From: a virus
Lineage: Duplodnaviria; Heunggongvirae; Uroviricota; Caudoviricetes
Virus record (IMG/VR): IMGVR_UViG_2671180417_000002
Span: 1 to 10,158 of that record
Length of the DNA stretch: 10,158 bases
Reading direction: 5' to 3' (one strand)
The position numbers are program-made. Below are positions 1-3,000 of the stretch, one piece after another (the stretch's first letter is position 1; each line of letters opens with the position of its first letter).

Positions 1-3000
1 AGGTTTGTGGTATTTTCGCGGTTGCCCCTTCGAGTTCTCGCCAGCGGTCAACAAGGCGAGCGGTGAATTCCGGCGACAACTGAGCGACGACAATAATGCT
101 GTCTCGCTTACCTTGTTCGCCTTCGAATATATACACGCTTGTGAATTTGTTAGGGCTAATTGTTTGTTTATTTTCAACTTTTTGCATTGAAGGAAGTTGA
201 ATCACCCCACGCTTTGCCAGACGTTCTATTGATATTCTGACATTACCGTGTTGGCTTCCCACCAACTCAGCGATTTCAATGCTTGTCATTTTGATGGCAT
301 TGCTATTTATCAGCTCATTCATTGTCATGTCCTCTCACATTGAAAATTCAGCAATAAAAAACCCAGCCGAAGCTGGGTTTGTTAAGTTGTCAATTGTCAG
401 TAGCGATGCAGTGAAGGCGGCAACTCTTTGTTCTTAAGCCTTTCCCATGCCAGAAGGTTCGTCGGCCCGTCAGGCTCATAAATATCTATATCCCGCGTGT
501 GATTAATTAAAACGCCCCTCGCCCTCCCGATGATATACGAGAACTCATAGCCGTAGTCGTGGCATATGCCGGAATAGCCAGACTGAATCAGTTTTAATGC
601 GGGATACAACTCACGGAACAATGCCTGTGAGCGGTTGGCATAATCCCACAGCCATACAAGGCTGTCTGTTTCTTTTGCGGAAAGCCCGTTGAGCTTCTTC
701 TCTTGTTTGCCAGTATTTTTCTCGCACTGGCTGAAATAGCAGTCTTCCAGTTTTTCGAACACATCCCACGCCTGATCGGTTTCGAGCATTTTTGCGTGAC
801 GGGCTGCGCCGCGTTCTGTCCAGAGGATGAGGGAGCGGGCATTTTTACCAACTAACCCGATTGTTTCGGGTCTGTTCTTAAACTCGCGTAATTCGTTTTT
901 TTCAATTTTAAAGTAATGCTTTCCGGGCATGAATCGCGTCGTGTTGTTCAGAAAGTTATCAGAAATGTTTTTGATTTTTGTTCCGTAAAGGTGAGCCAAC
1001 AGTTCAGTAGTAATTACGGGGATCTGGTTATAGGTAACAGGGGAAAGGTTTTCGACAGAAATTTGAACAGCCATAATGACCTCGCGTTTCGATAATTTTT
1101 ACCTCGCCACCGTCAGGTGCTAATCATCGTGGTGGCGAACTGTGCGGGGTTAGCACTACCGGTCGAAACATCCGGCGAGCCTTTCGGCTCCCCCACACAG
1201 CCCGCCATAAATCGCGAATGTGACTGTGCTTAGCGCATAAAAAAACCGCCAGCGCGGTTATGCACCGTTTCGATATCCGGGGTGCTAATCCCGACGCCAG
1301 ATTTTGCTGGCGCGTGAGGAATATAGCCCCGAATAAATCATCGCGTCAATCACCTTGTTTTCCTCGCACGATGTCTTAGCCACCGGATATCCCACAGGTG
1401 AGCCGTGTAGTTGAAGGTTTTTACGTCAGATTCTTTTGGGATTGGCTTGCGTTTATTTCTGGAGCGTTTCGTTGGAAGGTATTTGCAGTTTTCGCAGATG
1501 ATGTCGGTGATACTTCTTCGCTGTCGCCTCATGCCGCCATCCTGACGCCCTGCCCGATCGCCATCAATGCCGCTTTGGATACAGTAGTAAACATTCGTCG
1601 AGGACTGATGAACTGTCGCCAAATCAGCAGCATGGAGCCTTTGCTGTTTCCCTTCTTCTCCAGCCCTGTCGATGGTTCGATAAAATTAATCCGTCCATCA
1701 GTGATAATGCGAACTTCGTCGACACTCTCCAGAGCCTTGCTGAACCATCCGACTGACATATCCTCTGGCACAAGCATCACTACCGTCTGTCGCTGTTGTA
1801 TGCACTGCTCAGCGGCTTTTTCCACCCACGGCCTGATATTGCTGTACGGTGGGTTATTCCAGATTGCACCGTGGCTTATCCACTCAGAATTTAGCGCGTC
1901 GTCGGCCTCAGTTAGCCAGTGAGCGCACAGAGCATTTTTGTCGCTCGCAGCTGAATCCAGCCAGAATCCAAACTCAATATCCAGTGCATCAAAAAGCCAA
2001 AGCGGCGTTTGCCTGCAGTCCTTGTCGTGTGATGGCGTATTTGATTTGATAGTCATGCAGCTCTCCCTTTTCGTTGTGACCATTCATACTCTCGCCAGGA
2101 GTCATCACTCCACCGCACGTTGCGCTCTGAGCCGAACCAGAACATGATTTCGATAAGCTCAGTCATGCTGGCCTTCCGCATTTTGCTGGTACGCACGCCA
2201 AGCATGACAACGCCACCGTCGATACCAGGCACACTTCGTTGCTCCAGTTTTTTGGTCTTAAGCCACAGGGCAGTGAACAGGTCTTTCCAGTCTTCCGGCG
2301 CCAGCCGTTGACCATGCCATAGCACCTGACGCGAAACATCGTTCAGCATCGGCCACATACGGTCATTCTGCGCTTTGCTGCGCTTGGGTTCTTTAACGTG
2401 GACTTCGTGGGGTGACTTGTCGTCGATGGGTAGTGAGAGAATGGCGTCTATGGCGTTATTTCTGATTGCTTCGTTGCGAAGCAGAAAGGTTTGCTTCATC
2501 TCCTGCTCTCCGGTTCCATTTTTCAGCCGCCGCAGCAACTGATGGTGCCCATGCCCCCCTGGCTTCACAGAGGTCACATTCTGCATAGCCCCACACATCA
2601 ATATTTATTCCGGCCTCAACCCACAGACGAGCATTACCGCCGCAAAACGGACATTCTTTTAGCTTTGGCTGGGTTAATGATAGGTCGCTCATGCTCACTC
2701 CTTCACTTAAAATCCAGACTCCGGATAATTCTGTTGCGCTGAAACTCATTGTTGAGTTTGAACAACCGTCGAAGAACACGGTCACGCGGATAGCGTCGTG
2801 CGGCAGGTGAATGCTCATACAACTCATCAAGCGGCAAACTGGACGATGAACGATACCGATACCAACGCACCAACTCTTCACGAAAATTAGCCCTGACAAG
2901 CTCAGCTATCGTACTCATTTCTTAAAACCTCCTCAAACGCATTCTGACGCATTTTTCATTCTCGCTGCTTATCGGCATGCCTTGCACGTGCTTACCTCAC

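Follow-up and report, generated by a model that had tools for sequence, protein, structure and literature searches.

We analyzed a 10,158-nucleotide (nt) stretch of DNA (positions 1 to 10,158 of IMG/VR virus record IMGVR_UViG_2671180417_000002; hereafter the window), which makes up the whole of Escherichia coli draft contig CYEO01000070.1 of assembly GCA_001285285.1 and carries, at 1529–2692 on the minus strand, a Dam-type DNA methyltransferase gene (dam) and a gene for a Lar-like zinc-ribbon protein on either side of ninB. In the reading that we favor, with a probability of about 0.78, these are two independent accessory genes in a nin region like those of Shiga-toxin (Stx) phages, a GATC-type Dam gene and a Lar-family gene that form no fixed unit. 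The region itself is an ordinary, already annotated nin region of a Stx-type lambdoid E. coli prophage. Bases 1340–2960 share 98.9–99.1% identity with numerous Stx1- and Stx2-converting phages, VT2-Sakai and JLK-2012 among them; all or part of this segment occurs in 2170 of 5426 complete E. coli genomes, and the whole segment matches 418 phage records, 92 of them from Salmonella phages. The NCBI Prokaryotic Genome Annotation Pipeline (PGAP) gives the series 'DUF7301 | Lar family restriction alleviation protein | recombination protein NinB | phage N-6-adenine-methyltransferase | NinE', the VT2-Sakai record names the methylase gene dam, and RefSeq phage records name the small open reading frame (ORF) 'Lar-like restriction alleviation protein'. 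Both accessory genes are thus already catalogued, and no part of the observation is new: the order Lar-like gene, ninB, dam, ninE is the standard arrangement among Stx1- and Stx2-converting phages, with gene names already in RefSeq, and its significance is mostly one of annotation. In surveys, the methylase and the Lar-like gene should not be counted as one counter-defense system, because the methylase usually occurs without a Lar-like gene.

Linkage of the dam and Lar-like genes

Five consecutive genes on the minus strand make up the locus: the DUF7301 gene (2703–2918, 71 amino acids (aa); PF23975, E 3.8e-26), the Lar-like ORF (2456–2692, 78 aa), ninB (2053–2499, encoding an Orf-family recombination mediator; PF05772, E 9e-49), dam (1529–2056, 175 aa) and ninE (1350–1532; PF05322, E 8e-44). 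An earlier reading of this DNA from its letters (the sequence-only reading) had described a 175-aa ORF with an NPPY motif, joined by ATGA overlaps to ninB upstream and ninE downstream, and a 78-aa CPFCG...CxxC protein just upstream of ninB, and its description of the layout was accurate throughout, including the interval 1529–2692, which is the exact Dam-to-Lar span, and the identities of the ninB and ninE flanks. The dam ORF begins with the ATG at 2056, ends with the stop codon at 1529–1531 and encodes NPPY as residues 68–71 (codons at 1844–1855, minus strand). It is translationally coupled to both neighbors: the ninB stop and the dam ATG overlap as ATGA at 2053–2056, and the dam stop and the ninE ATG overlap as ATGA at 1529–1532. 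An AAGGAG Shine-Dalgarno sequence lies a few bases 5' of the Lar-like ATG; the ORF reads C14-P-F-C17-G ... C39-D-L-C42 in its cysteine region and overlaps the ninB start (2499) by 44 nt. Longer starts, giving 184 aa for dam and 123 or 147 aa for the Lar-like ORF, were considered and rejected; in each case the shorter start has a Shine-Dalgarno sequence and agrees with the PGAP and VT2-Sakai annotations.

We examined the neighbors of these genes in 80 viral contigs with close Dam relatives (at least 97% identical) and in 80 with close Lar-like relatives, scoring neighbors by tblastn and counting upstream Lar-like genes at the 74 Dam loci where the upstream sequence extended for at least 1200 nt. 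NinB–Dam–NinE was kept at 80 of 80 close Dam loci, whereas a Lar-like gene lay upstream of NinB–Dam at only 13 of 74. At other Dam loci, the gene beside ninB was ren, a DnaB-like helicase gene, a phiTE_015-like gene or an unrelated 70-aa cysteine-rich ORF, for which we found no Pfam match. Because of this difference (80/80 against 13/74), the conserved unit is NinB–Dam–NinE, and the DUF7301 and Lar-like genes are a separate, narrow mosaic cassette. Seen from the other gene, Dam was present at 64 of the 66 Lar-like loci with enough downstream sequence, and the DUF7301 gene, a constant upstream partner, lay 5' of the Lar-like gene at all 80. This Lar-like variant was confined to 119 phage records, all of them from E. 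coli Stx or lambdoid phages, and its loci are copies of one near-clonal cassette (at least 97% protein and about 99% DNA identity), so that the 64/66 linkage reflects shared descent.

These counts leave the proposal of the sequence-only reading that the two genes together form a host-defense evasion module unsupported, as joint inheritance across related elements was not found. A co-selected module acting together from the nin operon would account for the 64/66 association, and a link to restriction evasion, which had been proposed along with the module, is indeed documented or suggested for both families; but the association stems from a single cassette, the slot upstream of NinB–Dam is otherwise variable, ninB separates the two genes, and the expected targets differ, being GATC-cutting type II enzymes for the methylase and type IA systems for the Lar-like protein. 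We therefore regard such a module as improbable. The last 14 Lar-like residues (...DEANLSASQRSNQK) are encoded within the overlap with the 5' end of ninB (2456–2499). The full tail recurs on a 49%-identical Salmonella Lar-family protein encoded beside ninB, and the end of the tail (...SQRSNQK) recurs on phiTE_015-like ORFs beside ninB. The recurring tail marks a recombination junction that mosaic lambdoid phages share. In the reading that we favor, the adjacency of dam and the Lar-like gene comes from lambdoid mosaicism and not from a fixed unit.

Families, fold and target of the two proteins

The family assignments made for both proteins by the sequence-only reading were borne out by profile searches, with scores above the curated cut-offs. 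The 175-aa protein matched PF05869 (Dam) with E 3e-62 and 209.7 bits (cut-off 28.1) over profile positions 1–167 of 169, the NCBIfam equivalog model TIGR01712 (phage_N6A_met) with 256.2 bits (cut-off 97.05), and PHROG 111. PADLOC classed it only as an 'orphan methyltransferase'. The phage N6-adenine methyltransferase family comprises 15,559 clusters (50% identity) at E≤0.001, and we used 107 diverse representatives for residue conservation. Catalytic motif IV is intact in the window protein, and its residues are highly conserved in the family: all 107 representatives had N68 and 106 had P70, and P69 and Y71 were nearly invariant. Conserved elements follow in the order D13-x-W15-x-T17-P18, a helix, a strand leading to D34-x-A-A, T49-E50 and the NPPY strand; conservation and secondary structure together suggest a layout in which cofactor-binding motifs precede the catalytic motif, without a separate recognition domain.

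An AlphaFold2 (AF2) model of Dam built from a 33-sequence alignment was a confident single domain, with a predicted local distance difference test score (pLDDT) of 89.2 and a predicted template modeling score (pTM) of 0.86. The model has a Rossmann-type S-adenosylmethionine (SAM) methyltransferase fold, and its Foldseek matches were mostly N6-adenine methyltransferases. The best solved match was PCIF1/CAPAM (PDB 6iry and related entries; E 1.8e-4, template modeling (TM) score 0.55–0.59), followed mostly by CamA, TrmM, type I/ISP methylase modules and E. coli Dam; searched against PDB sequences, the Dam family profile matched no chain at E≤1. PCIF1/CAPAM shares an adenine-N6 methyltransferase core with the window protein, but it is an RNA cap enzyme of ~470–490 residues with 14–16% identity, and the resemblance is one of fold only. 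The host Dam of E. coli makes the same chemical mark, probably at the same site (GATC), but is only a remote structural match (Foldseek E 0.2–0.4, TM 0.33); the phage enzyme is ~100 residues shorter and lacks a separate DNA-recognition domain. No nuclease family was found in the window or beside dam, whose neighbors are ninB and ninE, and the methylase is thus an orphan without a partner restriction enzyme.

The window Dam is 97% identical to VT2-Sakai Dam over all 175 residues, with five substitutions. The VT2-Sakai enzyme, M.EcoVT2Dam (VT2-Sakai H0105; 933W L0094), is likewise encoded between ninB and ninE with identical start and stop overlaps, and is described as 'is known to target 5'-GATC-3'', a result credited to Radlinska and Bujnicki 2001 (PMC6602927). 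The sequence-only reading was therefore wrong to call the target specificity unknown, and the target should be taken as GATC by homology. The GATC site is scarce in the window, with 22 sites against 38.3 ± 6.0 expected from dinucleotide-preserving shuffles; 200 of 200 shuffles had at least 22 sites. The sole GATC within dam is at position 1556. In some E. coli assemblies, changes near the 3' end of dam give Dam–NinE fusion ORFs of 233–235 aa, with a frameshift from about residue 130 in one fusion cluster (P0022) and divergence only at the last residues in another (P0001). These fusions are further signs of frequent decay or variation of the gene pair in prophages.

The 78-aa protein matched PF14354 (Lar_restr_allev) with E 1.8e-10 and 41.3 bits (cut-off 28.6), TIGR03655 (anti_R_Lar) with 62.3 bits (cut-off 39.6) and PHROG 599; as a control, RalR/Lar of the K-12 Rac prophage scored 53.5 bits on PF14354. 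The window protein and Rac RalR/Lar are 36% identical over 58 aa, belong to the same Pfam and TIGRFAM families and share the zinc-ribbon signature of CPFCG...CxxC cysteines and a helix starting WN(K/R)R. Residues C14, C17, C39 and C42 (2567–2653, minus strand; a putative zinc ribbon, with zinc binding itself putative) and W59-N60-R61-R62 align with RalR and with the 49%-identical Salmonella relative. By the NCBI standard, the protein counts as a family member and not as a RalR equivalog. It is 100% identical to VT2-Sakai H0103; among 5.8 billion proteins, its homologues fell into only 6 clusters, with the nearest distinct one at 49% identity. Searched against PDB sequences, it gave only weak matches to eL43 zinc-ribbon ribosomal proteins (E about 0.01), its AF2 model from 4 sequences was poor (pLDDT 52.5, pTM 0.31), and PADLOC returned no match for it. 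The two proteins differ in setting: Rac Lar is encoded beside recT near the prophage end, but the window Lar-like protein is encoded in the nin region beside ninB, and its 14-residue tail in the ninB overlap is shared with unrelated upstream genes elsewhere. EcoKI-type restriction alleviation with modification enhancement was reportedly described, by King and Murray in 1995, only for Rac Lar, and reviews describe the activity of Rac Lar as enhancing modification. Lambda Ral has the same expected function, type IA restriction alleviation by enhancing modification, but is not a homologue of Lar and is encoded elsewhere in the lambda genome, which makes it a functional analogue only.

Expression, the W15R/P148Q allele and the roles of the two genes

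An intrinsic terminator-like hairpin with an 8-pair stem (6 G-C) and a T run lies at 3341–3374 (minus strand), between ren and the nin genes at the tR2 position where the nin region starts. This segment is 97.8% identical in lambda and is annotated as 'terminator' in the P22, g341c and MG40 records. The locus belongs to the rightward early operon beyond this terminator and would therefore be expressed lytically under N antitermination; judging from gene position, dam expression is probably confined to lytic growth. In E. coli sequence type 131 (ST131), a prophage Dam homologue that may or may not belong to this family was reported to be untranscribed in the lysogen (PMC4659465). The sequence-only reading had allowed for an effect of the methylase on host gene expression in the lysogen. 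Such an effect is unlikely, given the position of dam in the early operon beyond the terminator, the GATC methylation already supplied by host Dam, and an allele that may not be fully active.

This allele became apparent in a position-by-position comparison of 1350–2918 of the window (1.57 kb) with about 145 close relatives. Just two bases were private to the window, 2014 (0 of 149 relatives) and 1614 (0 of 143), and both are non-synonymous changes in dam, at conserved positions: codon 15 (2012–2014, minus strand) is AGG for Arg instead of TGG for Trp, and codon 148 (1613–1615, minus strand) encodes Gln instead of Pro. These substitutions, W15R and P148Q, also set the window protein apart from M.EcoVT2Dam. 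W15 and P148 are present in each of the 80 close viral relatives. Among the 107 diverse representatives, position 15 was W in 83, Y in 12 and never R, the motif neighbors T17 and P18 were present in 105 and 101, respectively, and position 148 was P in 74. The D-x-W-x-T-P motif, which bears on activity and not on homology, is therefore altered in the window, with D13, T17 and P18 kept and W15 replaced by R. The allele is rare but real: an identical protein (WP_053892346.1) is encoded by six further contigs, assembled independently from isolates and metagenomes, so it is not a sequencing error. The DNA backgrounds of these contigs are 96.6–99.9% identical to the window, and one of them (L163), from a gut metagenome, has an O gene that is intact at 312 aa; the allele thus persists in phages that appear intact. 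The R15+Q148 pair also occurs in a 58%-identical Serratia homologue (P0117, a Serratia marcescens cluster) that lacks T17-P18, has other changes at conserved sites and looks degenerate. R15 was present in 3 and Q148 in 4 of 277 family sequences, and ~0.02 chance co-occurrences are expected.

The activity of the allele is uncertain because W15R falls at a position with an aromatic residue in 95 of 107 representatives, beside the near-invariant T17-P18. That the window dam is a loss-of-function or weakened allele, a reading that concerns this copy only and overlaps with the one we favor, is a tentative possibility to which we give less than even odds. It draws on the concentration of the only private changes of the 1.57-kb segment at conserved dam positions, on the absence of R at position 15 from the representatives, on the degenerate look of the Serratia homologue, and on the damage elsewhere on the window contig, where O is frameshifted after codon 135 and cIII ends at codon 40; but the allele's spread to six other contigs, one with an intact O, the retention of NPPY, D34, T17 and P18, and the full-length dam ORF, still coupled to its neighbors, argue against it. 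In a converse reading, which we consider highly unlikely, W15R and P148Q are a coupled, selected pair in a circulating Dam variant with altered behavior and not decay; such a variant might, for example, prefer another cofactor or site, or bind DNA without catalysis. This reading draws on the two substitutions being the only private ones in the segment, on their presence on seven contigs, one with an intact O, and on their independent recurrence in the Serratia homologue. The two changes may represent a loss-of-function state, a compensating pair or coincidence. Whatever its state, the rare W15R allele offers a cheap natural test of the DxWxTP motif in a very large, structurally unsolved family.

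Under the favored reading of two independent accessory genes, the methylase would be a compact, single-domain, SAM-dependent N6-adenine DNA methyltransferase with a GATC target, as reported for the VT2-Sakai enzyme, and would top up GATC methylation on rapidly replicating phage DNA. The added methylation could shield progeny from methylation-sensitive GATC-cutting enzymes in new hosts and make phage DNA appear fully methylated to GATC-reading systems of the host. The Lar-like zinc ribbon may, by its homology to Rac Lar, relieve type IA (EcoKI-type) restriction by favoring modification. Several points weigh against this picture. E. coli already methylates GATC, so the benefit of a phage Dam in E. 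coli is unclear, and the W15R allele may have little or no activity; one study reports that lysogen cultures express a putative Stx-phage Dam methyltransferase, possibly of another family (PMC3342100); the Lar-like protein scored 27.6 bits on the RalR equivalog model NF007260, where the cut-off is 113; and RalR has been reported to be a non-specific DNase toxin (PMC4041452).

Two further readings change the role of one protein each. The methylase could be active with a main role other than restriction evasion, maintaining full GATC methylation of replicating phage DNA in the service of replication, repair or regulation, whether by avoiding MutH nicking or SeqA binding or by supporting lysogeny control. 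Lambda itself is not known to carry dam in its nin region, so the lambdoid life cycle can do without the gene. In favor of such a role, the enzyme's target coincides with that of host Dam, the shortage of GATC in the window fits a site under selection in these phages, and host Dam is reported to be needed for stable 933W lysogeny, for which the putative Stx-phage Dam has been suggested as a supplement (PMC3342100); with the silence of the ST131 homologue in the lysogen, whatever its family, on the other side, we judge this role possible but unlikely. For the small protein, the question is whether it is a DNase-type toxin like Rac RalR, which is reported to cleave DNA as the toxin of a type I toxin–antitoxin pair (PMC4041452), instead of a restriction alleviator. 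Its 36% identity to RalR makes this conceivable, but it falls well under the equivalog cut-off; a search of the window for a RalA-like antitoxin RNA was negative, with a longest complementarity to the Lar-like mRNA of 8 nt, in a comparison whose RalA–ralR control is itself weak at only 11 nt; no Rfam RNA family lies over or beside the gene; and a strong Shine-Dalgarno sequence and a place in a lytic operon are ill-suited to a tightly repressed toxin. A toxin role thus seems very doubtful to us.

State of the prophage and neighboring genes

The lambda-type replication initiator gene O (4385–5303, minus strand) falls into two ORFs, one of 135 aa for the N-terminal part (PF04492) and one of 124 aa, in a different frame, for the C-terminal part. 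With O of E. coli F8704-2 as the reference, a single 20-bp ori iteron is absent, and the resulting frameshift ends translation after codon 135. Unless the repeats were collapsed in the assembly, this prophage copy is probably replication-defective, which weakens arguments for a present-day function of the locus in the window. The cIII gene (9547–9669, plus strand) has 40 codons compared to 54 in F8704-2, as a G-to-T change creates a TGA; it keeps the Pfam CIII core (positions 1–39 of 42), the Rfam Lambda_thermo element (9534–9592) is intact, and kil follows at about 9683–9823.

On the 3' side of ninE, a P1-type immunity-I-like unit occupies 397–1326 on the minus strand. It comprises Rfam matches to isrK (1239–1313), to a c4-a1b1 target (1274–1326) and to the C4 antisense RNA (1128–1212), followed by a gene for a 225-aa antirepressor-like protein (397–1074) with ORF6N and P22_AR_C domains.

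Between the cI-like repressor gene and N, at the position of rexAB in lambda, two overlapping ORFs span 6896–7914 on the plus strand. The 111-aa ORF had no family match in Pfam, PHROGs or PADLOC, and the 227-aa ORF matched PHROG 14825, of unknown function, and gave a weak, below-threshold match to a Pfam coiled-coil family (CCDC90-like). Both are candidates for an exclusion or defense function expressed in the lysogen. Between N and cIII, at 8639–9322 on the plus strand, lies a gene for an Nmad5-family protein (PF18757, 'nucleotide modification associated domain 5'; E 1.5e-68), possibly a second gene of the window with a link to nucleic-acid modification.

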